Assembly: GCA_001628485.1 (NCBI GenBank)
Contig: LURR01000006.1
Coordinates: 26,879 to 90,878 of the forward strand
Source of the DNA: Marine group II euryarchaeote REDSEA-S11_B3N4
GTDB lineage: Archaea > Thermoplasmatota > Poseidoniia > Poseidoniales > Thalassarchaeaceae
DNA length: 64,000 nucleotides
Direction: 5' to 3'
Shown: positions 27,201 through 46,860 of the stretch, in pieces
Position numbering within the stretch: the stretch's first letter is position 1
Layout: every line of letters starts with the position of its first letter
Position numbers and translations under genes: made by a program
The notes under the pieces: generated by a model
What the model saw: the letters and a program-made list of their open reading frames with translations, nothing else
Told to the model about the DNA's origin: nothing
Database searches by the model: none

Positions 27201-27919
27201 GCCTCTCTGTTCCAGAGGCCCATGATTGAGTCTGTACCCCCCACTAGTGAATCAGATACTGACTGAATGAAACAAGCATGAGGCTGAGGGTGTTCATATG
27301 CATTGGTAGATCTTCCTAGCTCACCTGTATCTGGGTCTACGTAGCTATGGCCTTGAGCCGGGCCTTCGATTCCATATGCCCAATGCAACCCTGTGTTGAA
27401 CCACTGGGGGCTGTTAGGTGCAGATCTCTGACTTGCAATCAGGTAGCACATCTCATCGAAGTACGCGCGGGCATCAGCCTCGCTTGCGAAGTATCCGTAC
27501 TTCCAGCCCCAGTAGGTCCAGGTCCCTGCGAGCCGACGGAAGAGCTGTCTTCCGTCAATCTCACCACCCATTCTTTCAGCGGCATCCACAGTCTGAAGCC
27601 GCTCGTGATCTGGCTCACTTCGCTGTAGCCAGACTGGAACGTCGTCCTCGGGAACGTTCCGAAGATACTTCGGAACTCCCGCCTTGCGGAGATACTTCTG
27701 AGCACAGACCGTTCCCGGTACACCAGAGAACCCCGAAGGCAATTTCACGCCTTCTAATGAATCGGCCATAGACCCGTCTGGGTTCCTGATCTGCACGTCC
27801 ATCTCAATCCATTCGAACGACTCGAACGGATCCTGTCCTGCAGATGTGAACCGCCTCTCGACGACCATACCGCTCTCAGACTCTATATTGCTCTCAGAGG
27901 ACTTAATTTTCGTCTGCAT
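24263..27919 (-). CDS. nrdJ: Adenosylcobalamin-dependent ribonucleotide reductase (class II, NrdJ), long form with a C-terminal Cys-rich zinc ribbon
   Basis: 'CFIQSV', 'GSGTGSNFSNIRGKGE', active-site 'NPCSEYMFLDDTACNLASINL', 'TVIAPTGTIGL' and 'SKTINMP'. The C-terminus is 'CEDCGGSQMVRNGTCLKCNECGSTTGCS'. Confidence 0.9.
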   Translation of the reverse strand: MQTKIKSSESNIESESGMVVERRFTSAGQDPFESFEWIEMDVQIRNPDGSMADSLEGVKLPSGFSGVPGTVCAQKYLRKAGVPKYLRNVPEDDVPVWLQRSEPDHERLQTVDAAERMGGEIDGRQLFRRLAGTWTYWGWKYGYFASEADARAYFDEMCYLIASQRSAPNSPQWFNTGLHWAYGIEGPAQGHSYVDPDTGELGRSTNAYEHPQPHACFIQSVSDSLVGGTDSIMGLWNREALLFKYGSGTGSNFSNIRGKGEPLSGGGTSSGLLSFLKIGDRAAGAIKSGGTTRRAAKMVTLDMDHPDIEEYIDWKPSEEEKVSALVIGSTILQKHADSIMESIWSFDSDEGRFDQKTNLGLRKAMVKAIHDSVPQAHIKRIVDLAEQGWKGMEFEVLDTDWQGEAYTTVSGQNSNNSVRVPNSFMDAVKSGDEWNLYFRTERDAAADEGRDAVPCRTVDAKALWDKIAYTAWACADPGVQFDTTINEWHTCPQAGRINGSNPCSEYMFLDDTACNLASINLLHYYDLDSHTFQIEDFKHSVRVWTATLEISVLMAQFPSESIAKGSYDYRTLGLGYCNIGSLLTHMGIPYDDERAFSICGAITAIMCGESYATSAEMASYLGPFPDYERNSDDMLRVMRNHRRAAYNAPAEEYEGITVLPMGIDSKKCPKDLLEAARSCWDRAVMEGEEHGFRNAQTTVIAPTGTIGLVMGADTTGIEPQFSMVQYKQLAGGGSLRIINQGLPSALSRLGYSKSEAKGIEEYVVGTGRLSPSIPHELLSNAGMTSEKLSEIESELPKVFHIRNAFSPDILGKEFCVENLGLTEDDFYLDEDGKEKCSNPWFDTLSHIGMTNEEIEVANTEIIGRNTIEGAPGLKDEHLPIFDCAQPSGAGVRSIAPSGHVKMMAAAQPFISGAISKTINMPSDCSIEDVREAYNLSYATMNKACAVYRDGSKLSQPLMSQLVDSMDLEEEDDEGSVVEKMVEEAASALPLPEPVAMPVAKALVDNYIAAKRPLPHRKRGANFKARVGGHSVRLITGEYEDGKLGEIFLLTSKEGAAWRALLSQFAIAVSIGLQHGVPIDAFVKSFTFTKFEPSGMIEGGSGRVKMSSSIIDWVFRELAIEYAGRDDLAHVPLNEEDLSPFSISRPEVTEQGLSRSQGERREVQMTLEAAVGDVDTRTRQAARERGFTGDICEDCGGSQMVRNGTCLKCNECGSTTGCS

Positions 27920-32591: not shown

Positions 32592-33302
32592 TCAGATTGG
32601 CTCTGAGTCTGACAGGCCTCTCTCAATTGCCTCAATCCAAGAACTATCAACGGATTCCCAGCCGCCCAATTTTTCTAGTTCCACTAGGCATTCCTTTTCC
32701 TTCTCATGGTTGTTACTATGCCTATGAATAAGAACCAGAGCTGCGTAACTCATCGAGTTTATCCATTGATCTTCCATATCCCAAGATCTCTCAAAGTGCG
32801 CTACAGCACCGTTGGGACCCTGAATCAAGCCCCTATGTATCTGTCTAAGCCCCGATTTAGACCACGCTATTCCCGGGACCCCGATTACCAGTCCTCTGAA
32901 TGCGAGATACAACTCCAGTGTTACCATTGTGCTGGCAAGAAGAAAAGAACCAATCTGCTCTGCTTGATCTGCAACCTCCCATCTAGAGGAAAGAAGACTA
33001 ATACCTCCAATGCAAAACAGGACTCCCGCAAGAGGAGCGACAATCACATCGGTCTTCGTCAGACTCATATCTCTAATGCCAAAAACAATGAACACCCCAC
33101 CCAGAAATACCGAAATCGAAGCTGGGAGATCTTCTCCGGATCCCTCTGGACTTGTGCTAGCAATCCACAGTATCAGAGCCCCTGTAAATAGGAACACAGA
33201 GAATCTAGACCCCTTTTCAGGGAAGGGCTGAAGCCTACTGAGATAGTAGCAATAGGACCCTAAAACCAGTAGAAGAGCTATCCAAAGAAACATCTCAATC
33301 AT
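32592..33302 (-). CDS. Hypothetical polytopic membrane protein with a soluble C-terminal domain
   Basis: About 6 hydrophobic helices in the first 150 aa. No recognisable motif. It overlaps the upstream ORF by 8 nt, suggesting an operon. Confidence 0.45.
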   Translation of the reverse strand: MIEMFLWIALLLVLGSYCYYLSRLQPFPEKGSRFSVFLFTGALILWIASTSPEGSGEDLPASISVFLGGVFIVFGIRDMSLTKTDVIVAPLAGVLFCIGGISLLSSRWEVADQAEQIGSFLLASTMVTLELYLAFRGLVIGVPGIAWSKSGLRQIHRGLIQGPNGAVAHFERSWDMEDQWINSMSYAALVLIHRHSNNHEKEKECLVELEKLGGWESVDSSWIEAIERGLSDSEPI

Positions 33303-33624
33303 CTACCTTGCTGCCCCATCCTGCTTTCCAGAAGTCCTCATTGTCAAGTAAATCTGACCATTCTGAGTCCCCTGCCTCTAAGAGCATCATAGCTCTCCTT
33401 TCGAGTCCCTCTAGAAGTGCTCCATCCACCTCTTTCTCAGAAAATGCCTTGTGCCATTCTACTCTTAGAGACTCGACTTCTAATTGACCGGTCTCTCTGT
33501 TATCGAAACTCTTCTCGCAGATCTCCCTAAGATCTTGAATCCACATCTTTGAAGTCCTCACATGGGGCTCGCTGTGAAGAATCCTCTTTTTTCGGAAGGG
33601 CCACCATCCCATGATAACGGCCAT
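33295..33624 (-). CDS. Hypothetical protein (109 aa)
   Basis: An ORF translationally coupled to 32592..33302. No motif recognised. Confidence 0.35.
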   Translation of the reverse strand: MAVIMGWWPFRKKRILHSEPHVRTSKMWIQDLREICEKSFDNRETGQLEVESLRVEWHKAFSEKEVDGALLEGLERRAMMLLEAGDSEWSDLLDNEDFWKAGWGSKVDD

Positions 33625-33688: not shown

Positions 33689-34123
33689 GTGGGACGTGTT
33701 GTCGTGTACCTAGATAGCAATCCGAAGGATAGCGACATTGCATCCATTATCAGTAGATATGAGGAGAGAGTCAAATCAAGAGGCGTATCTATCGAGATAT
33801 TCGGGTCCAAACGCGGAACCAAGAACTACGAATCTGAGCTTTCCAGATTGCCGGGAAGACTAGTCCTTCTAGATGAGGCGGGACCTTCAATATCAAGTCA
33901 GGGATTCGCCGAATGGCTAAATTCCGCTCATCTAGATAGCAATCCAACCAATCTAGCGGTGGGGCCCCCAGATGGATTCAGCGATGAACTCAAGCAATCC
34001 GCCGACCAACTGATCTCTCTGTCAGACCTAACTCTTACCCATGAGATGGCTGCTGCCCTCCTGATGGAGCAACTTTACAGAGCGTCCGAAATCATCCGCG
34101 GTTCGGCTTATCACAGGAATTGA
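33689..34123 (+). CDS. rlmH: rRNA large-subunit pseudouridine-N3 methyltransferase RlmH-like (SPOUT, DUF163)
   Basis: 'LVLLDEAGPSISSQGFAEWL', 'AVGPPDGFSDEL' and 'ISLSDLTLTHEMAAALLMEQLYRASEIIRGSAYHR' match the RlmH C-terminal knot region. Confidence 0.75.
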   Translation: MGRVVVYLDSNPKDSDIASIISRYEERVKSRGVSIEIFGSKRGTKNYESELSRLPGRLVLLDEAGPSISSQGFAEWLNSAHLDSNPTNLAVGPPDGFSDELKQSADQLISLSDLTLTHEMAAALLMEQLYRASEIIRGSAYHRN

Positions 34124-34238: not shown

Positions 34239-37200
34239 ATGAACGTCCAACTAAAGAGAAAGACACAGAAGAAAATAATTCCAGCATTTTCAATGATAGC
34301 GATAATGCTACTAAGTCCTCAGATATCGCTGCTACTGAATACTGACGATTCTCCAGAGCAAGACAGCCGCGTCGAACCGCCCAAAAGAACGGCATACCAA
34401 CAATTGGAGCAATTTGGGGGATCAGTCCAAGATGGGAATCAAAATCCTCCATCCATGATGAGCCAATTCCAGACCGCGGCATATCAAGACCCATTCTACA
34501 ACGACCCCGCCGCGCTCTATGGAAAGGTATCCGATCCATCCGCCCTGGCGCTCGACCCGATGTACGGATTCTTTCTCGAAGAAACGAACACAGACGATCA
34601 CGATAACGATGGTATTGACGATCTGAATGATCTAGATGATGATAATGATGGAATCAACGATCTTATCGAGCGATTCGATGGTTGCTTCGGAACAGATCCC
34701 CTTGACCACGATAATGATGGGGTTAGGGACGAGTTCGACTGGGATGACGACAATGACGGGATACTGGAGGGCCCAATCGACTACTCGCAAGGGAACGATC
34801 CATGGAATGTAACTTCAGATAGGCACGTAGAGCCCACGACCATCCACCCTTGGACAGGGCAGGCAGTTGGCTTCAACTACTTAGTAGACCAGAACCCAAT
34901 GGATCACGATAATGATGGAATCACCGATGAGGACATAGATGGATCCGGGCGCGGATCATACGATGAGGATGACGATAATGACGGCAGAATCGATCAGTTC
35001 GTGTGGCCCTGCGATTTCGATTCGGACGGAATGCAGGATTACTTCGACGATGACGATGACAACGATGGTGTAGCAGACATCTCAGACATACACCCATGGG
35101 ACCCCCTGCAGAATTCGTCTATCGAAACCGCACCTGGAATACTATGGGACTCTTGGGTCAGGTGGGATCCTGAGGATTACGGAGAGTACGTCGACGGACT
35201 GGACTACGTCGCCCTTCACGCCCTGGAGCACCCTAGAGAACAGGCTTTCACGGAGATAGTGGACGGCGACCTCGATGGAGACGGAATTCCAAACTTCCTA
35301 GATCCGGATAACGACAACGACGGTGCACCCGACTCCTCAGACACCGATGACGACAACGATGGTCTGGCGGACATGTACGATGTAGACGACGACAATGACG
35401 GTATACCCGACTCATGCAGGCAGTTGGATACGAATGGAGATGGCCAAGGAGACTACCCTTCACAGGCATTCAACGGCGCTGTAGTGGCCATCCAAGTACC
35501 CGGAACCGACTGTGAGATAGACTATGACGGGGATCTGGATGATGATAGATTCAGAGCCATCGATGCAGATTACGACATGGTCTGGGACTGGATCGATCCC
35601 GATATGGGCGGTACGACAAATCCAGACAACCTGCAGGGAGGGTCCCAACCTTGGGACTTGGATGATGACGGAATCCCCAATGAGGAGGACCCATACCCGA
35701 TGAACTCAACAGCCGAGGTAGCAACATGGGACTGTGCCAGCGTTGCGAACCCGAACCCCCAGGACCCTAGCGACAATTGTGTACTTTGGCGAACGTCCTA
35801 CACCGGATTCAACGACTGGGATGGCGATGGCCTGAACAACTGGGTCGACATGGACGATGACAACGACGGAATCCTGGATTGGCTGGACATAGACCCGGAC
35901 TGCGACCTAGATAACGACGCAGATCTCCATGAGCTAAACGGCTCGATGTTCAGGGACGACGGAGCGAACGACATAGACACCGACGTGGATGGAGACGGCC
36001 TCCAGAACGACGAGGACTGGGATGACGACAACGATGGGATCAATGATTTCTTCGACCCTGATGACGGAAACTGCGGTGTAGTGGACATAGACAACACGGA
36101 CAACTTCTGGGGCAATAGCTGGCCCCAGGGAGACGGCGATGCCATCGATGGATCAGAGGACGGAGACGCATATGTTGCAGTCCCAAACTACTACTGGAAC
36201 CTCACTTGGGGGTTCAACCCCTTCAATACAAACAACAGCTTCATGCTCGACTACAACGGGTACGATCCAAACAACTTCGACAATCCAAGTGGCATCATTC
36301 CTGAGATGTACTGGACTCTAATGATGAAGTGGAGCCCCTACAACGGTGACAACTTCTTCGATATCGACAGCGACGGAGACTCCCTGGTAAACGGAATAGA
36401 CGTGGATCAGGACGGAGATGGGATGCCCGATTGGTGGGATCAAGACGAGGGCAACGACGGAGTTCTAGATGTCGACGACGTCAAGATGGGAGGCACCTTG
36501 GATGGCAACTCATGCGGCACGGTCATCCTATCCGCAACAACCGAGAGATTCTGCGGCCACATCTACGCCTTCCTCTACAAGGCGCCTCTACTTACTCCGA
36601 CCCAATCAGGTGGCCAATCTTTCACTGTTCCATACAGCAGCAGGCCCGACTCTGAATGGGACGATGGTGCATATGATGGGACAAACCACCCCACTGGAAT
36701 GGGTAGTTGTGACAGCAACTGCTTCTGGTTCACATTCGATCCAACTAGCAACCCAACCCCTTCTGTTGCGTACACATACAATGACATCAAGAATAACAGG
36801 GATCTGTGGATAGCTTACCTCGGAGTCACCGTCTTCGGATTCTTCCAGTGGACTTCGGATGCGAATAACAACTTCTTCCCCGATGAGATTGCTGACGATC
36901 TCGACGATGACGTAGATCCAGACGTGGACTGCGGGCAGCCTATGCCGGAGGTATCGTGGACCCCAAGTTGCATGTACAACAATACGAACGACTTGGACGA
37001 CGACTGGGACATAGTCTACGATCACTTCGATGTGGACGATGACAATGACGGAATCTGGGATTATTTCGAGATCGACTCGAATGATGATCTAGATGATGAC
37101 TCAGGGATAGAGGAGCCATACTACTTCACAGGAAGCAATTGCGAGGACAATGACGACGACGGTCTGGATACAGACCCCGACGATGATGGAATATACCAGG

Positions 37201-40200
37201 CAGTATGGGACAGAGGAGTACTAGGTCAGGCCTTGCTATTCCCAGAGTACTACGATGTGGATAACGATAACGACGGAGTTCCGGACGGAGAAGACCCAGA
37301 CGACGATAATAACGGCCTGCTAGACGAGGCTCAGGAGGCATTCGAAGGATGCTTCACAGGGGAGGAACAGAGCCCATGGGACCACGACAACGATGGGATA
37401 GTTAACTGGGCAGATGACGACTGGGACGGCGACGGAATTCCAAATTCCCTAGAGCTCCAGAACCTCAACGATACCAACGGGACAGCAGACCCTATTGACG
37501 ACACCTGCTGCCTCAACTTCCCCATAGCCCCATGGGACCACGACAACGACGGGATAAGGGACGATATAGACGAGGACGATGATTACGACGGCATGAAGGA
37601 CGAGGACGAAGTGATGCTATGGCCTTCGCGATACGGTACCGAATCAACGAATCCATGGGACCACGACGACTTCGGAGGGGGGGTCGGCCTGGCCAACCCC
37701 AACAACAACTCCACAGGCCCGGATTACTTCGATGTAGACGACGACAACGATGGAAGGGCGGACTTGGACTGGAACAGCCCCTCTTCGGGGGATTGGGCCA
37801 CACCATCAAACAAGATTGAGGAATCTTCAGGATGGAGCTCTGACTGGGACTCTGACAACGACGGGATTCTAGACGACGACGATAAGATACCGACTAGGAT
37901 CACTCTGACCGCTCCATCCGTATTGTGGCTAGACGAAAATCGGCCAGCGATATTCAATGGCTCCGTATTTTGGCTGGACGACACAGGTTTCGTACCGGCA
38001 CCAGACCTCCCTGTCCAGGTCCACATTAGGTACTCTGCGAACGGCACATCCGTCATAGAGACAATCGACGTCCTCACTGATGACAACGGGGAGTATATCG
38101 TCGGCCAGTTCTTGTTCCCGGAAGACATCGATGTAGGGCCTAACTCAACCTATGAGGTCTACTCAGAGGTCACCGAGATGTTCGTTCACGATTACAGCTC
38201 GACGCTCTCTGACACTGACGGAGACGGCATCGGAGACTCGGGGATGCCTGTCGAGGTAAGGGCGAACACCACGATTGGATTCGTATCCGGGGAGAGGTTC
38301 AGATCGGACGAGCAACCCCTCAAGCTGGACTTCAAGGTCCACTACTCGGCAGACTACAACAGAGGGATTTTCGACAACAGACTGCCCTATGCGCCAGTTT
38401 CCTTCACGATTAGCGACCCAGGCCCCCAGTTCGGGAACATCACCCATCCGACTGTCTACGATGGATACGGGAACGGATACAGGGCTGACGCAGGAGGCTG
38501 GGTTTCACTGGCTTACAACCAATCCCTGGATGTGTGGGAACAGGTCCAGTGGAACTCACTGCTGGATAATGGCCCGGGCGTCCCGACAGGCGGATATGAG
38601 GAGATAGTGTGGAATCCGTGCGGACCGCTCAATCCAGTGGGTTCCCATTCTGTCATAGCGCCCTATGAGTACAAGAATACCTCGCTCCCTGTTGGGGATT
38701 ATACCTTCATCGGATTCTCACGTCCTGATCTGGGAGGATGCACTGACGACTCCTACGAATGGCCTTGGTCCCACCTCGAGGGTTCGGAGACGGACGCCTT
38801 CTACATCCGTTCCATGCACAGGATGTTCATCGAGGCCGAGATGTCAGCAGCCTCCTTCAGACCAGTCTACTTCTGGGACTCTACCCAGTTCACAGGCTCG
38901 TCCTTCGGTGCATGGAGGGCTCTCTTCCATGCTCCATCCCTTGCAAATGCGAACATGACGTATCAGGAGGCAAGTCTTGGCAAGCCATACCCGCTTCTAT
39001 GGGACGGGACTCCCACCGGGCTCTCTGGAATAGCAGCCGGCGCCCTCGTCCCGTTCCTGTCCTCTGATGGGATAAACTGGACCATAACGATGCAGAATGC
39101 GGCTGACTTCGACTCGCCTCCATGCGGACCGGTCGACCCACTCGATCCCAGCAGCCAGATTCGCTGCGAGATAGTACCGGAGATATTCGCAGGTGAGTCC
39201 GTCAGGGTAAGGGGGCACGTCTGGAACAAGACAATGGTGCCCGTCACTGACTTCGACGGCGATGGAACGAAGGACCCCATAGCCGTACAGATAGACTTGG
39301 ACTACAATGGGATCTTCGCTGGATCCATAGAGACTCGAGTGAACCAGCGACTGGACATCGATACAGAGGGCCTGGCAACATTCGACCACGACATAATCTG
39401 GGACCCATATTGGCCAGCATCGACATACGGCTTCAGAGCCGACTTCGGCCAGGCCGACTACTTCTTCACCGGAGAGCAAGCAGGAGTCCTAGCGGCCACC
39501 GGCGCGTACGGAAATGTATCGGTCATAGGTTCAACTGACTTCCTACTAACATCTCTGACGCGCCTCTACAGGGGCCAGAACGCGACGGTCGAGGCCCGTC
39601 TGATTGACAACGCCGGGCTTCCTGTACGTGAAGCCCCAGTGAACTGGTCATGGGCCGAAGACCAATCGAGCGGCGTGGTTTTCACCGACAACAACGGGAT
39701 ATTCAGGGTCAATCTGACAGACATTGACACCTTGGGGAACTTCTCGCTCAGTTTCACCTACCTCGGAGACAAGTTCAGGCTGGGAAGCACGGACTCAGTA
39801 GACATGTGGGTCGTTTCACGGACGTTCATCAACGTCCAGAGCACGAGTCCAAACATCAGATCCAACGGAGATCTGTGGGAATTCACTGCTGTTGTCACCG
39901 ATGATAATAGAACTCCATTCGATAAGGATGGAGGCCAGGTTCTGAATAGCTGCGAGGGAGAGATGCAGGATCCTGAGGGATACGACCTGGGAGGCAACGT
40001 TACAGTAATCTTCGAGGGAATAGACTTCGAGGACAGGACCCACCGACAGATAGTCTCCGTCGAGTGCCCGGCATCCGGCTCCATCGGCTATGGACAATAC
40101 CTGGACCCACAGCTGCTGAAGGACGACCCATTCTCCTTCCTTCCCGATGGTTTCGGACCTGTGAACGTGATCCTACGGTTCGAGGAGAACCTGCCTCACG

Positions 40201-42149
40201 AGGGTTGCGAACCCATAGACGCAGGGATGCTGTCCACATCCGGAGCATGGGACCCCTGTGTGACCATCCTCAACAGTGATCACTTCAGGAAGGTACTGCA
40301 GTTCCAAGTAGATGGGTTCAGCCTCATCGGGAACACGGATCTGCAAGTTGACCAGCAGATAGTCTACACCTCTGAGATAGACCTGGATACGGGAGAGATA
40401 CTTGAGAAGCCAATGATAGTGACCGGACAGTTAACCGATGAGCTCGGAGGAAACCTGTCAAACAGACAAATCCGAGTCACATTCGAGATGGGATCTATGG
40501 TATTCGACCCTGTCGAGAATCGGATGAAATTCCGTGCAGGAGATGACGGCATAGAGGCCTGTATCCCGGGTGCGACCGATGAAAACGGATTCTTCGACAT
40601 CAACTGCCCTATGACCGGCGTCGACGCAGGAATGGCCAAGGTGAAGATAGAGTACAATGCCTGGGACCCGCTAAACAATGACAGATACAGATACAAGAAC
40701 AAGACACAAGCAATGTTCTTCCCCGTCTTCTCCAACTCTACGATCGACGTATCGGAAGTAGGTCCGTTCAGGTCAGATTACCTGACATACACCTTCCCGA
40801 ACGGCTCAACCTTCGAAGTTCTGTACCTGAAGGAGGCATTCCACATCAATGCCAAGCTCTCCCAGTCAAACGGAAAGCCAGTCGGTGGGAAGTGCGTCAA
40901 CATTTACCTAGATCCAGAAGTAAACACCAGGCCAATAGCCACAGCATTCACGGCTGGTGGAACCGGTGAGTTCGTTTGGTACTCGGCAGATCCAGATGAC
41001 AACCCTAGTAGGAGGGGAGTTGAGCCTAGCGGAAACAACCTCGAAGGGTTCCGTACTGTCAGAGTTGCTTACGAGCCAGAACGGTACGTACCAGGGGGCT
41101 GCGACTACGAAGTACTGGAACCAAACCCAGTTCTGAATAGCTCCGTAGTAGACGTCGAAGTCCTAGTGAGAAGCAAGGTTGACATTCTGCTGAAGCAGCA
41201 CTGGTCAAGCCCAGCTGGATACCAAGAGGGAGATATTATCGCTGGGGAGGTTGCAATCCTCAGAGACAGGCTGGATCTCACCGTTGAGGGACAGAGAGTA
41301 GAATTCCACCGACAGTTCTGGAATGAATCCGGTGAGTGGCAGACAGAGCGCGTGGAGATACTTATCACCAATGAGAGGGGCTCTGCGAACTTCTCCTTCC
41401 CATACACCGGTGAAACCATTCCCGGACACCCGGAGTGGAGCGCCCCAGGGGGCAAATGGAGGGTCCTGGTTCACTTCGAATCAGTAGACGCGAACAAACC
41501 CTACTTCGTAGAGAAGTGGCTCAATAGCACCCCGGAGATAAAACTTGGAGAGGGCACCTCTTCGACTTCGGGCGGCCTCTGGACTACCCAGGTACTAATC
41601 CTCGCCGGAATATCACTCTCAACAGTGGCGCTGGTGGGTGCGATGATGTACAACAACTACAGGGAGAGACGAAAGGTCGAGGTCCTCCGAGGCATACTGA
41701 CCGACGCGCTAATGTCCCTCAAAGCCTCGAACAATTACATCGAGGCAATCTTCTCCTGCTACAAGGACCTCATCAAGTACTTCAGGATGAGAGGCGCCAT
41801 GAAGAAGGTCTTCGAGACCACCAGAGAGTTCGAAGACGTCATCAACAAAATGCTCGGAGGAATAGTACCCCCAGAGGAGATCGACTCCTTCTTCTCGATA
41901 TTCGAGGAGGCTCGCTATTCTGATCACGAAATAGGATCGGAGGAGAGAGACAGGGCGATACAGATATTCCAGTCGATGATTGGTAGGATGAACAGATCTC
42001 TCGGAGATAGCTTGCTTACAAGGGAAGCAGTCGGCGAGTCCTCGTTGTACGGTCCCTCAGTGAAGGCAGGGCAGTTCGTCGATGCAGATGGAAACATTAG
42101 GTTCGCCGGAGTAGATGATGCAGAGGAAAACGACGGCTTCAAAATCTGA
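34239..42149 (+). CDS. Giant (2,636 aa) acidic membrane-anchored surface protein: N-terminal signal/anchor, about 1,100 aa of thrombospondin-type-3-like Ca-binding repeats, a beta-rich region, a single C-terminal TM helix and a cytoplasmic DUF4129-like tail
   Basis: N-terminus 'KKIIPAFSMIAIMLLSPQISLLL'. Dozens of 'D-x-D-[ND]-DG-[IV]-x-D' loops, for example 'DDDNDGINDL' and 'PWDHDNDGIRDD'. TM 'VLILAGISLSTVALVGAMMY'. The tail is '...TTREFEDVINKML...FFSIFEEARYSDHEIGSEERDRAI'. Confidence 0.85.
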   Translation: MNVQLKRKTQKKIIPAFSMIAIMLLSPQISLLLNTDDSPEQDSRVEPPKRTAYQQLEQFGGSVQDGNQNPPSMMSQFQTAAYQDPFYNDPAALYGKVSDPSALALDPMYGFFLEETNTDDHDNDGIDDLNDLDDDNDGINDLIERFDGCFGTDPLDHDNDGVRDEFDWDDDNDGILEGPIDYSQGNDPWNVTSDRHVEPTTIHPWTGQAVGFNYLVDQNPMDHDNDGITDEDIDGSGRGSYDEDDDNDGRIDQFVWPCDFDSDGMQDYFDDDDDNDGVADISDIHPWDPLQNSSIETAPGILWDSWVRWDPEDYGEYVDGLDYVALHALEHPREQAFTEIVDGDLDGDGIPNFLDPDNDNDGAPDSSDTDDDNDGLADMYDVDDDNDGIPDSCRQLDTNGDGQGDYPSQAFNGAVVAIQVPGTDCEIDYDGDLDDDRFRAIDADYDMVWDWIDPDMGGTTNPDNLQGGSQPWDLDDDGIPNEEDPYPMNSTAEVATWDCASVANPNPQDPSDNCVLWRTSYTGFNDWDGDGLNNWVDMDDDNDGILDWLDIDPDCDLDNDADLHELNGSMFRDDGANDIDTDVDGDGLQNDEDWDDDNDGINDFFDPDDGNCGVVDIDNTDNFWGNSWPQGDGDAIDGSEDGDAYVAVPNYYWNLTWGFNPFNTNNSFMLDYNGYDPNNFDNPSGIIPEMYWTLMMKWSPYNGDNFFDIDSDGDSLVNGIDVDQDGDGMPDWWDQDEGNDGVLDVDDVKMGGTLDGNSCGTVILSATTERFCGHIYAFLYKAPLLTPTQSGGQSFTVPYSSRPDSEWDDGAYDGTNHPTGMGSCDSNCFWFTFDPTSNPTPSVAYTYNDIKNNRDLWIAYLGVTVFGFFQWTSDANNNFFPDEIADDLDDDVDPDVDCGQPMPEVSWTPSCMYNNTNDLDDDWDIVYDHFDVDDDNDGIWDYFEIDSNDDLDDDSGIEEPYYFTGSNCEDNDDDGLDTDPDDDGIYQAVWDRGVLGQALLFPEYYDVDNDNDGVPDGEDPDDDNNGLLDEAQEAFEGCFTGEEQSPWDHDNDGIVNWADDDWDGDGIPNSLELQNLNDTNGTADPIDDTCCLNFPIAPWDHDNDGIRDDIDEDDDYDGMKDEDEVMLWPSRYGTESTNPWDHDDFGGGVGLANPNNNSTGPDYFDVDDDNDGRADLDWNSPSSGDWATPSNKIEESSGWSSDWDSDNDGILDDDDKIPTRITLTAPSVLWLDENRPAIFNGSVFWLDDTGFVPAPDLPVQVHIRYSANGTSVIETIDVLTDDNGEYIVGQFLFPEDIDVGPNSTYEVYSEVTEMFVHDYSSTLSDTDGDGIGDSGMPVEVRANTTIGFVSGERFRSDEQPLKLDFKVHYSADYNRGIFDNRLPYAPVSFTISDPGPQFGNITHPTVYDGYGNGYRADAGGWVSLAYNQSLDVWEQVQWNSLLDNGPGVPTGGYEEIVWNPCGPLNPVGSHSVIAPYEYKNTSLPVGDYTFIGFSRPDLGGCTDDSYEWPWSHLEGSETDAFYIRSMHRMFIEAEMSAASFRPVYFWDSTQFTGSSFGAWRALFHAPSLANANMTYQEASLGKPYPLLWDGTPTGLSGIAAGALVPFLSSDGINWTITMQNAADFDSPPCGPVDPLDPSSQIRCEIVPEIFAGESVRVRGHVWNKTMVPVTDFDGDGTKDPIAVQIDLDYNGIFAGSIETRVNQRLDIDTEGLATFDHDIIWDPYWPASTYGFRADFGQADYFFTGEQAGVLAATGAYGNVSVIGSTDFLLTSLTRLYRGQNATVEARLIDNAGLPVREAPVNWSWAEDQSSGVVFTDNNGIFRVNLTDIDTLGNFSLSFTYLGDKFRLGSTDSVDMWVVSRTFINVQSTSPNIRSNGDLWEFTAVVTDDNRTPFDKDGGQVLNSCEGEMQDPEGYDLGGNVTVIFEGIDFEDRTHRQIVSVECPASGSIGYGQYLDPQLLKDDPFSFLPDGFGPVNVILRFEENLPHEGCEPIDAGMLSTSGAWDPCVTILNSDHFRKVLQFQVDGFSLIGNTDLQVDQQIVYTSEIDLDTGEILEKPMIVTGQLTDELGGNLSNRQIRVTFEMGSMVFDPVENRMKFRAGDDGIEACIPGATDENGFFDINCPMTGVDAGMAKVKIEYNAWDPLNNDRYRYKNKTQAMFFPVFSNSTIDVSEVGPFRSDYLTYTFPNGSTFEVLYLKEAFHINAKLSQSNGKPVGGKCVNIYLDPEVNTRPIATAFTAGGTGEFVWYSADPDDNPSRRGVEPSGNNLEGFRTVRVAYEPERYVPGGCDYEVLEPNPVLNSSVVDVEVLVRSKVDILLKQHWSSPAGYQEGDIIAGEVAILRDRLDLTVEGQRVEFHRQFWNESGEWQTERVEILITNERGSANFSFPYTGETIPGHPEWSAPGGKWRVLVHFESVDANKPYFVEKWLNSTPEIKLGEGTSSTSGGLWTTQVLILAGISLSTVALVGAMMYNNYRERRKVEVLRGILTDALMSLKASNNYIEAIFSCYKDLIKYFRMRGAMKKVFETTREFEDVINKMLGGIVPPEEIDSFFSIFEEARYSDHEIGSEERDRAIQIFQSMIGRMNRSLGDSLLTREAVGESSLYGPSVKAGQFVDADGNIRFAGVDDAEENDGFKI
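34590..37890 (+). repeat. In-frame array of short degenerate acidic repeats (coding for DxDxDG calcium-binding loops)
   Basis: Recurrent nucleotide words such as gatgacgacaa[ct]ga[ct]gg encode DDDNDG. The spacing is irregular (about 10-40 codons), so this is not a perfect tandem repeat. Confidence 0.8.
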
Positions 42150-42249
42150 GACACTGAGTAAATCCACTGTCCTGACGCCCCTATGGGGCGCCCGCAGGAT
42201 TCATAACACCGACTTTGGTGGCCGCGCTACCTGATTAGGGGGGGATACT

Positions 42250-42615
42250 ATGAGTAAGCAAGAGAGGAAGACCAACTCAGCGCTAGTTTCGCTCATAGGG
42301 GACCTGAAGGACCACAGCAGAACAACGGGCTCTCCAATATGGAGGGACACTGCCTCTAGGTTAGAGACCAGTAGGAAAAACTGGGCAGAGCCCAATCTTA
42401 GCCATATCTCCAGGCACTCTGCAAAGAAGGAGACAGTACTGGTGCCCGGCAAGGTACTTGGCAGCGGAAGCCTCAGCGGAGGGCAGACGATCGCCGCCTT
42501 CAGCTTCAGCGATGGAGCCAAGAGCAAGATAGAGGCCTCCGGGGGGAGGACTCTTAGCATTCGCGAACTCATGGACGAGAATCCCAACGGCAAGGGGGTG
42601 AGGATCCTTGTCTGA
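42250..42615 (+). CDS. rpl18e: 50S ribosomal protein L18e
   Basis: 'SPIWRDTASRLETSRKNWAEPNLSHISRH', 'VLVPGKVLGSGSL', 'IAAFSFSDGAKSKIEASGG' and '[11 protein letters not shown]'. A G-rich SD lies before the ATG. Confidence 0.9.
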   Translation: MSKQERKTNSALVSLIGDLKDHSRTTGSPIWRDTASRLETSRKNWAEPNLSHISRHSAKKETVLVPGKVLGSGSLSGGQTIAAFSFSDGAKSKIEASGGRTLSIRELMDENPNGKGVRILV

Positions 42616-43090
42616 GAAAACTATGGTATACGACGCCACGGACAAGATACTTGGCAGGCTAGCCAGTCAAGTTGCTAAAGAGATGATTTCTGCCAGGAAG
42701 TCAGGCAGGCAGCAGAGGGTCATCATAATCAACGCAGAGGACGCCATCGTCTCGGGACCCAGGACCAAGGTGCTAAGCGACTACAGGGCAAAATACAATC
42801 TCAACCACGCCAGAAAAGGGCCATTCTTCCCAAGGATGCCTGACAAGATAATCAAGAGAACAGTCAGGGGAATGCTCCCGTATCAGAAGAACAGCAGCGG
42901 AAGGGGGGCCCTGAGGGACCTCAGAGTCATGATAGGGACCCCGCAAAACCTCTCTCTGGAAGAACTCCCAGATGGACACGAGTGGGGGCCGACAGAGAAC
43001 ATTGTTCGCGATACCCCCAATAAGTACGTCAGACTGGGCGAGATCAGCTCCCACCTTGGAGTGGATGCAAATAGATGGGCAGGTGAGTGA
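42608..43090 (+). CDS. rpl13: 50S ribosomal protein L13
   Basis: '[20 protein letters not shown]', '[14 protein letters not shown]' and '[19 protein letters not shown]'. It overlaps the L18e stop by 8 nt. Confidence 0.9.
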
Positions 43091-43529
43091 ATTGGCAAGG
43101 AAGAAGCGCACCAAGGTGGTCAACACTAGTGGAAAGAGAAAGACCGCGATAGCCAGAGCCACACTAAAACCCGGCAAGGGGAGGGTCAGGATCAACGGAC
43201 ACCCAATCCACATCCTCGAGCCCGAACTCGCTCGGAGGAAGGCACTAGAACCAATCAGAATCGCCGAGGCAATGAACAGAATAGACAGAGTAGACATCTC
43301 CGTCGATGTGAAGGGCGGAGGACAGATGGGGCAAGTCGACGCCATCAGGACCGCCATAGCCCGCGGCCTGGTGAAGTACAACGATGGAGCCGAGGGCGAT
43401 GACGAGGAGCTGAGGGACGAGTTCGTACGATTCGAGAGGAAGATTCTGGTGAACGACCCCAGGAGAAAGGAACCCAAGCATCAAATGGGTAGAGGCGCTC
43501 GTAAGAAGTGGCAGAAGTCGTACAGGTAG
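43065..43529 (+). CDS. rps9: 30S ribosomal protein S9
   Basis: '[26 protein letters not shown]', '[19 protein letters not shown]', '[24 protein letters not shown]'. Start is at ATG 43065 or GTG 43083, which overlaps the L13 stop. Confidence 0.9.
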
Positions 43530-43929: not shown

Positions 43930-46041
43930 ATGGGTTCTACGCATTCGGACGAGGGAACCTCCGAGGCCCGGGTTGACTGGCTAGCAGAGCAGTTAGAGAG
44001 GCACTCAGACCTCTACTACAACAAAGCGGAACCTGAGATATCAGATGCAGATTTCGATGCATTGAGAGACGAGCTGCAGCTCCTGTCCCCCAATCACCCC
44101 CAACTGAGCAGGGTGGGCTCAGATCCACCTCCAGGCTCTGAAAAGGTCGACCACCTATTCAGGATGATGAGCCTGGACAAGGCCAATTCGGACGAAGAGG
44201 TATCTCACTTCGTTTCCGAGACCACCGCCAATGGCCGGCGGTTCGTTTGCCAACCGAAGCTCGATGGCTCAGCCCTCTCATTGGAATATCGTCGAGGCCG
44301 ACTAATCAGAGCCGCCACCAGGGGCAATGGCAGGAGGGGCGAGGACGTGACGGCGAACGCGAGAAGGATGATGAACGTCCCGGAGAAACTCGGATGGGAC
44401 GGAGACTGTCACGTGAGGGGGGAGGTCGTAATGCCTCTGCAAGTATTCAGAGAGAAGTACTCAGAGGTTGCGCCCAATCCAAGGAATCTAGCCGCAGGAG
44501 CACTTAGGCAGAAGTATGCCGATGCAGGCAAGGGAAGCCCGAGAGACTTGCAGTTCCTTGCCTACGGTGTCGAGTTCCCAAGCGATAAGGACCGCCACCC
44601 AGACAGTCCTGAGCCCCCAGAATTCAAGCTCGACTCGGAGATAATCTCCTGGATAGGCGAGATGGGGATTCAGGTGGCAGGAAACCACGTGGTTTCAGGT
44701 GACGACGACACCACCACCACAGAATCCATACTGGCAGTGACGAGGGAGTGGCTCGAGTCGAGAGACTCTGCAGACTGGGAAATAGATGGAGTCGTGATCA
44801 AACTAGACCGGCTGGATAAGCGCGGCCTCCTGGGCGAGACCGCACATCACCCTCGGTGGGCACTGGCATGGAAATTCCCTGCCGAGGAGGCGGTAACGGT
44901 GCTGATGGACGTCTTCTGGCAGACCGGGAGGACGGGCAACGTCACCCCGGTTTCGCGTGTAGCACCAGTGGTAGTTTCAGGGGTTACCGTTGAGAATACG
45001 ACACTCCACAACAAGGGCGAGGTTGAGCGACTCGGGATAATGATCGGAGACAAGGTGAGAGTAGTCAGAAGAGGGGACGTAATACCAAAAATCACTGAGG
45101 TAATTGGACCGGCCCATGATAGCGACCTCATTGGCAGGTCCCATTCAGATGGGACCCCTTTCTCAGAACCACTACCTTCCAGGCGCGAGATACCAGTTCC
45201 CGAGGGATGCCCAAGGTGTTCCACTGACCTAATTATCGATGGGGCATTCATCAGATGTACCAACATAGACTGCCCATCAAGACTGGAGAGAGCAATACTG
45301 TACTGGTGCAGGAAGCTGGGTATGGATGGGATAGGCGAGAAGCTCGCAGAGCAGCTTTGCTCATCGGGGCTGGTCACGAGTTTGGGGGACCTATATCGGT
45401 TGGAGGACAGGGAGCAGGAGCTAATCTCACTAGAGAGAATGGCCGAGAAGTCAGCCAGCAACGTCCTAGAGGAATTGAACTCCACCAGGGCCATGACCTT
45501 CAGCACCTTCATCTCAGCACTTGGACTGCCTAGGATCGGTCCCGAGATAGCAACTCTCGTCTGTGCGGAGGTGAAGACTCTCGAAGAGCTGATACAAATG
45601 ACCGAAGAAAGGCAGACGGCCATCCAGAGACTTGTTTCCATAGACAGGGTAGGAGAGACCGTGGCCAACCTTCTGCTGGACGGTATATCCGATAGGAAGG
45701 AGTCGATTATCGACCTCTATGGGCAGGTGGAAATCGTCGAAGGAGAGCAGGTATCCGTCGATGGCCCCCTTTCCGGCTCTTCCTTCTGCATTACAGGCAC
45801 TCTGAGCAGACCAAGGAAGGAGATCGCTCTTTCGATAAAGTCAGAGGGAGGCAAAGTCGTCTCGTCCGTCTCGGGGAACCTGAACTTCCTAGTCGCAGGA
45901 GAGTCATCTGGATCAAAGTTCGACAAGGCCAACAGGCTTGGCGTCCGGATCATATCGGAATCAGAGTTGGACGAGATGCTAGGGGGGTCAATACTAGAGG
46001 AGCTGCCCGAAGAGAGGCAGTCTACGCTCGGCGAGTTCTGA
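43930..46041 (+). CDS. ligA: NAD+-dependent DNA ligase (LigA type)
   Basis: Adenylation motif 'CQPKLDGSALSLEYRRGRLIRAATRGNGRRGEDVT', OB fold, zinc finger 'CPRCSTDLIIDGAFIRCTNIDCPSR', HhH repeats, and a BRCT-like 'FCITGTLSRPRKEI...GGKV..SVSGNLNFLVAGE'. Confidence 0.9.
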   Translation: MGSTHSDEGTSEARVDWLAEQLERHSDLYYNKAEPEISDADFDALRDELQLLSPNHPQLSRVGSDPPPGSEKVDHLFRMMSLDKANSDEEVSHFVSETTANGRRFVCQPKLDGSALSLEYRRGRLIRAATRGNGRRGEDVTANARRMMNVPEKLGWDGDCHVRGEVVMPLQVFREKYSEVAPNPRNLAAGALRQKYADAGKGSPRDLQFLAYGVEFPSDKDRHPDSPEPPEFKLDSEIISWIGEMGIQVAGNHVVSGDDDTTTTESILAVTREWLESRDSADWEIDGVVIKLDRLDKRGLLGETAHHPRWALAWKFPAEEAVTVLMDVFWQTGRTGNVTPVSRVAPVVVSGVTVENTTLHNKGEVERLGIMIGDKVRVVRRGDVIPKITEVIGPAHDSDLIGRSHSDGTPFSEPLPSRREIPVPEGCPRCSTDLIIDGAFIRCTNIDCPSRLERAILYWCRKLGMDGIGEKLAEQLCSSGLVTSLGDLYRLEDREQELISLERMAEKSASNVLEELNSTRAMTFSTFISALGLPRIGPEIATLVCAEVKTLEELIQMTEERQTAIQRLVSIDRVGETVANLLLDGISDRKESIIDLYGQVEIVEGEQVSVDGPLSGSSFCITGTLSRPRKEIALSIKSEGGKVVSSVSGNLNFLVAGESSGSKFDKANRLGVRIISESELDEMLGGSILEELPEERQSTLGEF

Positions 46042-46860
46042 TCATCCGTACATCCCACTAGAAGCACCGCTACTCTCCTGAGGGGGATTCAGGTGCACAG
46101 CCATCATCTCACGTATCTGCCCCTCTATTCTCTGAGCCTCCTCCATGAGGGGTTCCGGATCCAGATGGACTGCAGGCAGAAGTCCGTCTAAGCATGCGAT
46201 TATCCCCGCTGCTGCACGGGCATCGGGAATCGTCCCCTGGCCTATCTCTCCATCCGACTCTGCAAGTATCGCCAGCGCGTCAATCCCTCTTCTCCTACAC
46301 TCTCCCATCATCACTCCAGTCATGCCCCCAACTACTCCTTGTTTCAGAAGAGGGACACCGATTCCCTTGAGCAAGTCGTGGGTAGAGTCCGTGGATCCTA
46401 GCCCCAGAATCGAATCCGTCCCCGGATCTTCGTCGAAAATGCTGTGCAGACTCTCTATTCCGTGTGCGAATGAATCGACCATTATCGTAGAACTCACTCC
46501 CGAGTCCTCTATCCAGTCGATTATTCCAGATGATAATGGAAGATTGAGCTCAGATGGGATATGTATCTCCGATGCGATAAGTACCACCTTGTCGCACTTC
46601 TCCATGTTGCATATCGGCTCTCCAGCATAGAATCTCAGAGGAGGCAGGGGCTTGCCATCTTGGACCAAGCACATCGGGGGGAGGTTTGGATGCCTGACGC
46701 CCCCGACGAGCTCCAAATCCAGCTTTTCCACCATGAAGTGTGCAACTATGCTACTAACGAATCCGACTGACGGGAAACAACTAACCAGAAGAGCGCCAGA
46801 AGCGTTCACGTCATCGCCAACCTCGACCAGAGGGGCCCCTTGCATGAACCCAGAAACCAC
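46042..46860 (-). CDS. PAC2-family proteasome assembly chaperone (PbaA/PbaB-like) with a C-terminal HbYX motif
   Basis: 'ALLVSCFPSVGFVSSIVAHFMVEKLDLELVG', 'IPDARAAAGIIACLDGLL'. The C-terminus '...SGMYG' is hydrophobic-Tyr-X. Confidence 0.75.
   Translation of the reverse strand: MVSGFMQGAPLVEVGDDVNASGALLVSCFPSVGFVSSIVAHFMVEKLDLELVGGVRHPNLPPMCLVQDGKPLPPLRFYAGEPICNMEKCDKVVLIASEIHIPSELNLPLSSGIIDWIEDSGVSSTIMVDSFAHGIESLHSIFDEDPGTDSILGLGSTDSTHDLLKGIGVPLLKQGVVGGMTGVMMGECRRRGIDALAILAESDGEIGQGTIPDARAAAGIIACLDGLLPAVHLDPEPLMEEAQRIEGQIREMMAVHLNPPQESSGASSGMYG

Follow-up and report, generated by a model that had tools for sequence, protein, structure and literature searches.

A giant Asp-rich, DUF4129-tailed protein conserved across Poseidoniales, a candidate surface scaffold

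The 64-kb stretch of DNA analysed here, referred to as the window, comes from a member of the Poseidoniales (Marine Group II, MGII), in agreement with the planktonic archaeal host supposed in the original prediction, and it carries a complete gene for a giant surface protein of 2,636 aa (34239..42149, + strand). We tentatively regard the product as a constitutive, N-glycosylated and Ca2+-stiffened scaffold of the Poseidoniales envelope or surface, belonging to a DUF4129-tailed group but lacking the transglutaminase, a reading to which we assign a probability of about 0.45. A structural envelope element, such as a surface coat, a spacer or an S-layer-like scaffold, is the best reading and is preferred over a variable adhesin. 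New relative to the original prediction are the presence of orthologues in both Poseidoniales families, a fixed genomic slot in the loci examined, a conserved length and a selection regime like that of housekeeping genes.

The gene is a single uninterrupted ORF on the + strand, starting at GTG 34230 or ATG 34239 and ending at 42149; the length of 2,636 aa is counted from the ATG, the stop codon is 42147-42149, and full-length orthologues have 2,500-2,714 aa. Existing annotations call it only 'hypothetical' or 'DUF4129 domain-containing'. A scan of the giant protein against NCBIfam gave zero matches, searches of PDB sequences with the protein and with a profile of 38 orthologues gave nothing significant except the Ca repeats, and an Rfam scan of the window found tRNAs only. 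The original prediction had described one intact ORF with five parts, namely a hydrophobic N-terminus, an Asp-rich region, a beta-rich region, a transmembrane (TM) helix and a tail, and this anatomy was borne out by the ORF list, hydropathy, motif counts, AF2 models and Pfam.

We found that the tail of the protein is encoded in 484 species-representative genomes. The best 80 of the 484 tail loci all lay in MAGs and SAGs of Poseidoniales or Thermoplasmatota, and 56 of these 80 held an intact ORF of 2,579-2,701 aa with 22-29 Ca motifs. Full-length orthologues with 47-50% identity were also present in Poseidoniaceae, so that both families of the order are covered. The slot occupied by the gene is bordered on the left by a SPOUT methyltransferase gene (33689..34123, + strand; Pfam and synteny table) and on the right by the genes for ribosomal proteins L18e, L13 and S9 (42250..43529, + strand; Pfam, with the border kept in L001-L003 as well as in the genome loci), a block that starts 100 nt past the stop codon of the giant gene. 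In most of the loci examined, the order cobalamin adenosyltransferase, orf236, orf109, SPOUT, giant gene, L18e, L13 and S9 was kept. In the loci farthest removed, identity of the giant protein was still 58-63%, as compared with 62-71% for L18e, 60-68% for LigA and 35-39% for the adjacent SPOUT methyltransferase; the giant protein has thus evolved about as slowly as the neighbouring L18e and DNA ligase. It is under strong purifying selection, of a strength that housekeeping genes also experience, with dN/dS of 0.02-0.04 outside residues 1-99.

A hydropathy scan of the whole protein revealed only two prominent hydrophobic segments, at residues 12-35 and about 2450-2472. The first follows a Lys/Arg-rich N-region and is about 20 residues long (34239..34343, + strand, residues 1-35 for both parts together); the same pattern of charge followed by hydrophobicity was kept at the N-termini of the orthologues, with poor conservation of the sequence itself. 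These residues are predicted to act as a Sec signal peptide or, if they stay uncleaved, as a signal anchor; depending on whether cleavage takes place, the protein could stand out as a stalk or be looped, with its two ends tethered. The linker that follows (34344..34535, + strand, residues 36-99) is the least conserved stretch of the protein, and residues 1-99 have a dN/dS of 0.16, against 0.02-0.04 in the rest.

Residues 100-1229 (34536..37925, + strand) form a polyanionic head containing 23.5% Asp. Twenty-seven motifs of the form D-x-D-x-[DN]-G-x-x-[DEN] were counted in it, as compared with 0.7 +/- 0.9 expected (maximum 5) from 2,000 composition-preserving shuffles, in keeping with the more than 25 loops originally estimated for an Asp-rich part of about 1,100 aa. 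The whole protein has 29 such motifs, including 10 doublets with an exact 13-residue spacing. Across the 38 orthologues, the Asp and Gly positions of the motifs are invariant, as are 22 Cys residues, 14 of them in the head, which has a dN/dS of 0.016. A profile of the repeat doublets matched PDB sequences of BamM (9n2d, E = 3e-4), COMP (3fby, E = 3.6e-4) and TSP-2 (2rhp/1yo8, E = 7e-4), and more weakly those of TSP-1 (E = 0.05) and an OmpA-family protein (E = 0.06). However, neither the whole protein nor its 300-aa pieces matched Pfam TSP_3 (PF02412), and TSP3_bac (PF18884), for which the cutoff is 25 bits, scored only 8.4 bits (E = 2.6); the composition correction of HMMER may contribute to such low scores. 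Lack of a significant TSP_3 match had been named in the original prediction as an outcome that would speak against it, and formally this outcome was obtained. The thrombospondin type-3 logic of the original prediction therefore stands at the level of motif and profile similarity, to COMP, TSP-2 and BamM, whereas membership of Pfam TSP_3 or TSP3_bac was dropped because no match qualified.

The loops share with those of thrombospondins (TSP-1/2 and COMP) and of bacterial TSP3-like proteins the pattern D-x-D-x-D-G-x-x-D-x-x-D, its DDDNDG variant and the 13-residue spacing, and by this motif similarity the head is predicted to bind Ca2+. Type-3 repeats of animal thrombospondins alternate regularly between 13 and 23 residues; the giant protein, in contrast, has mostly 13-residue doublets with irregular spacers, its context is that of an archaeal membrane protein, and the C-terminal lectin-like domain of thrombospondins was not detected in it. 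RTX repeats are absent from the protein. Within the head, the motif map showed gaps at residues 595-723 and 723-933, corresponding to a stretch rich in aromatic residues and Asn, in which Ca loops are sparse (36036..37028, + strand, residues ~600-930), that contains the invariant C759, C772, C824 and C828 and for which Pfam and PDB sequence searches were empty and an hhalign comparison with transglutaminase cores was negative.

Between the head and the membrane lies an array of about a dozen macroglobulin/Ig-like beta-sandwich domains (37926..41558, + strand, residues 1230-2440), with a dN/dS of 0.038. The AF2 model of residues 1236-2435 (mean pLDDT 78.5) is nearly all beta and almost free of helix, and the region has 25 N-x-S/T sequons as compared with 8.7 +/- 2.7 expected, so the sequon-rich beta part of about 1,200 aa proposed earlier was recovered; in the whole protein, 13 sequons recur in 34 or more of the 38 orthologues. 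Pfam Big_1 matched residues 1781-1829 at E = 1e-6, under its cutoff, and a low-stringency self-BLAST of residues 1230-2440 gave no off-diagonal matches, leaving internal domain duplication unsupported. The best Foldseek matches of the model were bacterial alpha-2-macroglobulin (ECAM 5a42, E = 1.4e-19), CD109, complement C5 and titin, and A2ML1 was matched too. With the alpha-2-macroglobulin, C3-C5 and CD109 proteins (E = 1e-19 to 1e-15) it shares a string of MG/fibronectin-III-like domains; since global TM-scores were only 0.10-0.16, the domain type alone is shared, and not the architecture. Identity as an alpha-2-macroglobulin was rejected because both the CxEQ thioester motif, which is absent from the sequence, and the sizeable helical domain, which is missing from the model, are lacking.

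The single C-terminal TM helix, QVLILAGISLSTVALVGAMMY (41586..41654, + strand, residues 2450-2472), is the highest hydropathy peak of the protein, and the sequence after it, YNNYRERRKVEVLRG, is in line with the positive-inside rule: five Arg/Lys residues occur in the 15 positions after the helix and none in the 15 before. In addition, conserved sequons reach up to 20 residues ahead of the helix and none is conserved after it. From this charge bias and sequon placement, the ectodomain is most likely outside and the tail cytoplasmic, which agrees with the one helix and cytoplasmic tail originally supposed. The AF2 model runs the TM helix on, as helix, into the 164-aa tail (41655..42146, + strand, residues 2473-2636; Pfam, alignment and AF2), a predicted bundle of six helices (mean pLDDT 69.5) for which Foldseek returned only generic helical bundles (best E = 0.3) and no significant PDB neighbour.

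The resemblance of this tail to DUF4129, first suggested by a short sequence pattern, was upheld. PF13559 matched residues 2520-2576 (nt 41796-41966, + strand) at E = 9e-5 and 22.9 bits (22.3-22.9 bits, E about 1e-4, over the scans), just missing the gathering cutoff of 24.8, yet it matched 24 of 25 homologous tails at E <= 0.01 (best E = 1.1e-9); many orthologues have a precomputed PF13559 match and more distant relatives score 26-41 bits. On the matches of the homologous tails, the tail is assigned to the DUF4129 family. Its alignment contains the invariant motifs GAMKKV.ETTREFE, FEEARYS.H.I and RDRA. A conserved extension of about 45 aa forms its end (residues ~2590-2636), in which the motif KAGxFVDxxGxxRxAG occurs together with a terminal GF[KRS]I. 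With a dN/dS of 0.029, the tail has been kept by the orthologues in related genomes, a point that the original prediction had raised as a check.

A TM helix plus DUF4129 tail was found to close many Thermoplasmatota proteins of 1,000-3,000 aa (215 representative clusters at E <= 1e-10). These relatives are large surface proteins in which Ig-like/CarboxypepD_reg domains and TSP3_bac repeats are often joined by a transglutaminase core, and archaeal giants of Thalassarchaeaceae and Thermoplasmata are annotated as 'DUF4129 domain-containing transglutaminase family protein'. The original description of the layout as not standard hence did not hold, given how common this ending is; moreover, archaeal surface proteins usually follow a plan in which a signal or anchor segment precedes a very large, glycosylated ectodomain that is closed by a C-terminal TM helix. 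Bacterial proteins of the TgpA type and archaeal giants such as P0316, P0214, P0299 and P0330 likewise have a large extracytoplasmic part, one TM helix and a terminal DUF4129 module, predicted to be helical, and the archaeal transglutaminase giants also resemble the giant protein in size, TSP3-like Ca motifs and Ig-like/CarboxypepD_reg domains. The tails of the transglutaminase-type relatives are 28-36% identical to that in the window, whereas the ectodomains align only in short Ca-motif and Ig-like patches. Unlike TgpA-like proteins and these archaeal relatives, the giant protein has no transglutaminase core, and its tail carries the C-terminal extension, which four transglutaminase-type relatives that were sampled lack, ending shortly past DUF4129. 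It is thus a transglutaminase-less member of this Thermoplasmatota surface group.

For the preferred scaffold role, we envisage that export would be directed by the N-terminal signal or anchor segment. The head of about 1,130 aa would then take up dozens of Ca2+ ions from seawater through its 27 thrombospondin-type-3-like loops and, with the conserved disulfides, become rigid with little regular secondary structure. The dozen or so beta-sandwich domains, presumably glycosylated, would bridge the head to the membrane, where its one TM helix and the DUF4129 tail, a predicted helical bundle, would anchor the protein and provide a conserved cytoplasmic contact. Archaeal S-layer and surface glycoproteins, such as the Haloferax volcanii S-layer glycoprotein and the Staphylothermus tetrabrachion, share with the giant protein, by its sequence features, the export signal, the acidic, N-glycosylated beta-sandwich ectodomain and the C-terminal anchor; presence throughout a lineage and a likely dependence on divalent cations are also in common. 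However, known S-layer proteins are usually fast-evolving, smaller and without a 164-aa cytoplasmic domain, so that the slow evolution, the much larger size and the conserved cytoplasmic domain of the giant protein are atypical and count against the scaffold reading. Searches of Pfam, NCBIfam and PDB sequences showed no similarity to characterised S-layer families, and a literature search for descriptions of an MGII S-layer or envelope, or for expression of the giant gene, found nothing specific. In a Red Sea metatranscriptome, the top-expressed MGII genes encoded disordered 'collagen-like cell surface proteins' and not the giant protein (PMC5069720), suggesting that the main surface component of MGII may be another protein.

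The main rival to the scaffold reading is a Ca2+-dependent adhesin whose thrombospondin-like head, projecting from the cell on the beta-sandwich stalk, would attach to particles, phytoplankton surfaces or polysaccharides. We consider this possible but on balance rather unlikely. Such a role is what the literature assumes for the 'thrombospondin genes' of Poseidoniales, whose wide distribution was listed by Rinke et al. as evidence of cell adhesion (PMC6461757). Both TSP3-like repeats and a long stalk of Ig-like domains are features typical for adhesins, and the aromatic- and Asn-rich residues ~600-930 might be a binding domain. However, no lectin or carbohydrate-binding domain was recognised by Pfam or PDB sequence searches, and adhesins usually vary in sequence and in repeat number, whereas here the number and positions of the repeats and the total length are essentially fixed and the coding sequence is constrained to the degree given above. 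The gene is also present in both families, in lineages described as free-living and as particle-associated alike, and the report that coastal MGII populations are mostly free-living (PMC6864105) likewise counts against adhesion.

A transmembrane coupling or sensing device, in which an extracellular load, a ligand or a change in Ca2+ would be passed through the single helix and DUF4129 to a cytoplasmic partner, for example a signalling, cytoskeletal or MoxR/vWA-type remodelling protein, seems unlikely. The tail is as constrained as the ectodomain, and this constraint, together with its invariant charged motifs and conserved C-terminal extension, argues for a conserved intracellular interaction. 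A parallel is offered by bacteria, in which genes for transglutaminase-like membrane proteins cluster with MoxR and DUF58 genes (the PFNA cluster, PMC8430577), the likeness being through the transglutaminase-like membrane type. Nevertheless, no signalling domain, be it kinase, cyclase, HAMP, STAS or another, is present in the tail, a predicted helical bundle lacking a significant structural neighbour, and no MoxR, DUF58/vWA or regulator gene was found in the window or beside two of the relatives (P0316 and P0225); the sensing role entertained in the original prediction thus gained no support. The Ca2+ concentration of seawater is high and constant, so that sensing of this ion is unlikely. Poseidoniales may, like several other Thermoplasmatota, be without a conventional cell wall. 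A more specific, integrin-like version, in which mechanical coupling of the Ca2+-loaded array to a partner in the cytoplasm, by way of the TM helix and the DUF4129 tail with its conserved extension, would join the envelope to the interior of the cell or carry information across the membrane, we regard as speculative and unlikely; if true, it would give DUF4129 its first function and represent a new class of connectors between envelope and cytoplasm in archaea.

A degenerate transglutaminase/DUF4129-family enzyme, with a cryptic papain-like domain (transglutaminase or protease) in the head acting on surface or environmental proteins, is a highly improbable reading. Two relatives with the same tail, and alike in size and composition (P0299 and P0330; 2,612-2,653 aa, 31-32 Ca motifs) do have a clear transglutaminase core amid their Ca repeats, and the invariant C772-G773 in 'FCGHIYAF' superficially resembles the catalytic motif GxCxxFA. 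However, the giant protein gave no match to Pfam Transglut_core, its alignment with transglutaminase-bearing relatives is confined to the tail, hhalign of the orthologue profile against the cores of the relatives gave a probability of <1%, and the candidate His and Asp positions vary among orthologues; on these last two grounds a cryptic transglutaminase domain around C772 was rejected.

An assembly or annotation artefact, either a repeat-collapse chimera, as the original prediction had allowed for, or a frameshift fusion of two genes, might be suspected in so long and repeat-rich a gene whose ORF is split in some relatives (2,406 + 301 aa in L001 and L002, with L003, L028 and L057 also interrupted), but it is refuted by an intact ORF of the same length in 56 independent assemblies, single-cell genomes included, by zero DNA repeats of at least 24 nt within the gene, meaning that the repeats are not in flux, and by dN/dS far under 1 over the full length. 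The splits trace to one extra T in a TTT run (L001 and L002), a run of N at the junction (L003) and one frameshift (L028); the idea of a split gene or programmed frameshift, raised by the break at the same place in L001-L003, was rejected on account of the extra T, the N run and the differing frame offsets.

Poseidoniales, reportedly the most abundant archaea of ocean surface waters (PMC6461757), are uncultured to date (PMC6864105), and the giant gene is a candidate for a core surface protein of the order. With 27 predicted Ca2+ loops per copy, its product could make a strongly charged, cation-loaded shell round the cell. The analysis also places DUF4129 as a common cytoplasmic end-piece of many giant surface proteins of Thermoplasmatota, providing a defined system in which this domain can be studied. 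Should the giant protein be a main component of the envelope, antibodies or FISH-type labels could be directed at it, and it would be of use in interpreting cryo-ET data and in work on virus receptors and particle attachment.

The giant gene is one uninterrupted open reading frame on the forward strand, extending from 34230 (GTG) or 34239 (ATG) to 42149 and encoding 2,636 aa counted from the ATG. Each of the five parts of the original prediction, which described a calcium-repeat protein with a transmembrane (TM) helix and a DUF4129-like tail, was found in the translation, hydropathy profile or motif counts. Residues 1-35 comprise a Lys/Arg-rich start and, in the hydropathy scan, a hydrophobic stretch some 20 residues long. 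The head (residues 100-1229) contains 23.5% Asp and almost no Lys, and carries 27 D-x-D-x-[DN]-G-x-x-[DEN] motifs, compared with 0.7 ± 0.9 (maximum 5) expected from 2,000 sequences shuffled without change of composition; ten motif pairs are spaced by exactly 13 residues. Between residues 1230 and 2440 there are 25 N-x-S/T sequons, compared with 8.7 ± 2.7 expected, and to judge from the sequence these are probably glycosylated. The sole strong internal hydrophobic peak in the hydropathy scan, at residues 2450-2472, corresponds to the TM helix. YNNYRERRKVEVLRG comes next, and the 15 residues after the helix contain five Arg/Lys, whereas the 15 before it contain none; the tail that follows has 164 aa. 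The ectodomain contains 496 Asp and Glu as opposed to 110 Lys and Arg. The product is a type-I-like membrane protein with an extracellular, TSP3-like polyanionic head, a sequon-rich array of beta-sandwiches, a single TM helix and a helical tail of the DUF4129 family, the last probably being cytoplasmic. The N-terminal hydrophobic stretch is of sufficient length that it may remain in the membrane uncleaved; the ectodomain would then form a loop tethered at its two ends and not a free stalk.

The head had been predicted to follow the logic of thrombospondin type-3 repeats. Pfam scans of the whole protein and of 300-aa slices gave no match for TSP_3, with TSP3_bac scoring E = 2.6 at best, and an NCBIfam scan of the protein gave no match. 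However, a 34-column profile constructed from the ten 13-residue doublets and searched against all PDB sequences found BamM (9n2d, E 3e-4), COMP (3fby, 3.6e-4) and thrombospondin-2 (2rhp/1yo8, 7e-4) as best matches, followed by thrombospondin-1 (E 0.05) and an OmpA-family protein (E 0.06), with alignments spanning the type-3 pattern D-x-D-x-D-G-x-x-D-x-C-D-x-D-D-D-N-D-G. The repeats are therefore thrombospondin-type-3-like in motif and PDB profile, although the curated Pfam threshold was not reached. Type-3 repeats of thrombospondins bind Ca2+, and by analogy the loops of the window protein would do the same.

For residues 1236-2435, AF2 modelling with 37 orthologues gave a nearly all-beta structure (mean pLDDT 78.5), whose secondary-structure string suggests roughly a dozen sandwich domains. 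In a Foldseek search of PDB, this model matched macroglobulin- and Ig-type domain arrays, the best being the alpha-2-macroglobulins of E. coli and Salmonella (E 1e-19 to 1e-18), with further matches to CD109, A2ML1, complement C5 and C3, a mastigoneme protein and titin. Global TM-scores were low (0.10-0.16), since the domain type alone is common to the beta region and these arrays. Sub-threshold Pfam matches to Big_1 and CarboxypepD_reg near residue 1781 are consistent with an array of macroglobulin/Ig type. Neither a CxEQ thioester motif nor RTX repeats were present in the protein sequence.

The predicted resemblance of the tail to DUF4129 was recovered, but below the family cutoff: PF13559 matched with E = 9e-5 and 22.9 bits (cutoff 24.8). 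The same family matched 24 of 25 aligned homologous tails, with a best E of 1.1e-9. In the AF2 model of the TM helix and tail (pLDDT 69.5), the TM helix extends into a long helix, after which come five more helices and, at the C-terminus, a hairpin that is weakly predicted; Foldseek found no significant neighbour of this model in PDB. A profile of the same segment, searched against 1.84 billion representative proteins, gave 702 matches at E <= 1e-3 and 215 at E <= 1e-10. Outside the Poseidoniales orthologues, the tail forms the extreme C-terminus of many proteins, with lengths clustering at about 1,000-1,400, 1,700-2,300 and 2,600-3,000 aa; those with names are from Thermoplasmata and Thalassarchaeaceae and are labelled 'DUF4129 domain-containing' or 'transglutaminase domain-containing'. 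Pfam scans of five tail-bearing relatives revealed DUF4129 together with Big_3_5, Big_1, CarboxypepD_reg or MG4, as well as TSP3_bac in two and Transglut_core in two, one of the latter also having TgpA_N.

With 2,612-2,653 aa and 31-32 Ca motifs, two transglutaminase-type relatives (P0299 and P0330) closely resemble the window protein in length and composition; around residues 420-550 both clearly contain a transglutaminase core. Between giants of this type and the window protein the tail aligns with 28-36% identity, and elsewhere only a few short Ca-motif or Ig-like patches do. When the orthologue profile was compared with the relatives' cores by hhalign, probabilities were below 1%, indicating that the window protein is a transglutaminase-less member of the architectural group. 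Furthermore, in P0299, P0330 and two other transglutaminase-type relatives (P0309 and P0327) the chain stops soon after DUF4129, whereas the tails of the Poseidoniales orthologues continue into a conserved extra segment, some 45 residues long, which includes KAGxFVDxxGxxRxAG and ends in GF[KRS]I. Transglutaminase-like membrane proteins of bacteria are encoded beside MoxR and DUF58 genes, for example in the PFNA cluster (PMC8430577); genes for MoxR, DUF58 or a regulator were absent both around the giant gene in the 64-kb window and beside two of the relatives.

When one genome per GTDB species was scanned with the two tail peptides of highest conservation, 484 loci were found to encode a relative, and the best 80 were all from MAGs and single-cell genomes of Poseidoniales or Thermoplasmatota. 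Several genomes, including AG-457-A01 and REDSEA-S43_B8, have tails 97-99% identical to that of the window. An intact orthologous frame of 2,579-2,701 aa with 22-29 Ca motifs was present in 56 of these 80 loci; among the other 24, 15 were cut by contig ends, seven had N runs and two were interrupted, L028 (a single-cell genome) by a frameshift at residue ~2216 and L057 at an insertion. A protein search added full-length orthologues of 2,500-2,714 aa with identity down to 47%, including those of Poseidoniaceae (MGIIa). The protein is thus conserved and present in both Poseidoniales families, under no other names in the sources than 'hypothetical protein', 'DUF4129 domain-containing protein' or (JGI) 'plastocyanin'. 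The last name accompanies a cupredoxin-like domain, some 95 aa long, that is inserted in some Thalassarchaeaceae orthologues (P0105, P0108, P0109 and P0111) at the position matching window residues ~310-314 (nt ~35170) and is also seen in locus L057 at 3619-3881. Its sequence, '...DTTDHTVTH...YNYSCMLHPTMTGTVTV', contains candidate type-1 copper ligands H...C-x2-H-x2-M, and precomputed Pfam assignments are PF00127 and PF13473. The window protein lacks this insertion, and Poseidoniaceae orthologues have a different one of about 100 aa near residue 420.

Most loci retain the gene order cobalamin adenosyltransferase, orf236, orf109, SPOUT methyltransferase, giant gene, L18e, L13 and S9. The conserved pair orf236 (about four TM helices) and orf109, at 32592-33624 on the reverse strand, always accompanies the SPOUT and giant genes in this block and has no Pfam match. 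In the most distant loci, identities were 58-63% for the giant protein, 62-71% for L18e, 60-68% for LigA and 35-39% for the adjacent SPOUT methyltransferase. Relative to one 95%-identical orthologue (dS 0.65-0.93), dN/dS was 0.016 in the head, 0.038 in the beta region, 0.029 in the TM helix and tail and 0.16 in residues 1-99. In an alignment of 38 orthologues, the Asp and Gly of the Ca motifs and 22 Cys were invariant, and 13 sequons were conserved in at least 34. No DNA repeats of 24 nt or longer occur inside the gene, which together with the conservation shows that the Ca repeats are fixed structural elements and not a fast-changing tandem array.

An assembly chimera is excluded by the intact orthologues, invariant motifs, low dN/dS and absence of internal DNA repeats. 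The gene reads as 2,406 + 301 aa in L001 and L002, two assemblies from one study, owing to one extra T in a TTT run at ~10000-10026 (~window residue 2336), which reflects either an error in sequencing the homopolymer or a genuine frameshift; in L003 it reads as two overlapping frames with an N run at the junction. The extra T and the N run indicate that the fused gene is the native form. In the L001/L002 lineage, whose giant protein is 47% identical, a separate Asp-rich protein of 578 aa (L001 856-2592) lies immediately upstream and shares 32-35% identity with several parts of the window protein's head; no counterpart exists at the matching window position.

The neighbouring genes are archaeal housekeeping genes, including those for topoisomerase VI, TFB, RFC, class II ribonucleotide reductase, ribosomal proteins L18e, L13 and S9, and PAC2. 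The 100-nt spacer between the giant-gene stop and the L18e start (42150-42249) contains a short GC-rich hairpin, GCCCC-TAT-GGGGC, without an oligo-T tract, so transcription may continue into the downstream ribosomal protein genes. This archaeal genome encodes LigA (43930-46041, +), a DNA ligase of the bacterial, NAD-dependent type with a BRCT domain, at a position conserved across Poseidoniales loci, and two PAC2-family (proteasome assembly chaperone-like) genes, at 46042-46860 (-) and 53273-54040 (+), lie less than 8 kb apart. The ribonucleotide reductase frame (24263-27919, -; 1,218 aa) has a TSCPD domain and a barrel-domain match in two stretches, and an insertion, for instance an intein, might account for its extra length. 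Another large protein predicted to lie at the cell surface (10805-16273, +; 1,822 aa) has an N-terminal hydrophobic segment, a CARDB domain and a C-terminal TM helix with a short acidic tail behind it; lacking Ca motifs and DUF4129, it simply follows the type-I plan that is usual for archaeal surface proteins. A 1,044-aa protein (58323-61457, +) with a lipoprotein-like N-terminus (…LAGCAGG) joins SBP_bac_3 and a Peripla_BP_6/ANF-receptor ligand-binding domain in one chain; such a pairing of two solute-binding domains is unusual.

We favour a structural role for the window protein in the cell envelope, where it could serve as a coat, a spacer or a scaffold resembling an S-layer. Among adhesins, patchy distribution, variation in repeat number and rapid evolution are the usual pattern, whereas this protein has fixed length and motif positions, a single syntenic slot in the loci examined and housekeeping-level constraint. 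These features argue against the main rival reading, that it is an adhesin, as implied by Rinke et al. for the 'thrombospondin genes' of Poseidoniales (PMC6461757). It is possible, but less likely, that the DUF4129 tail takes part in transmembrane coupling or sensing, the one observation in favour being its strong conservation. In a Red Sea metatranscriptome, the top-expressed MGII transcripts included those of disordered 'collagen-like' surface proteins but not that of the giant gene (PMC5069720).

All modules of the protein, namely the TSP3-like loops, MG/Ig-like domains and TM+DUF4129 tail, are of known kinds, and the general plan recurs in Thermoplasmatota; our literature search found no paper describing the family. 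What is new is the transglutaminase-less combination of a TSP3-like head, MG/Ig-like array and TM+DUF4129 tail, the order-wide presence of this giant protein under strong constraint, and the recognition of DUF4129 as a common cytoplasmic end-piece of many giant archaeal surface proteins.
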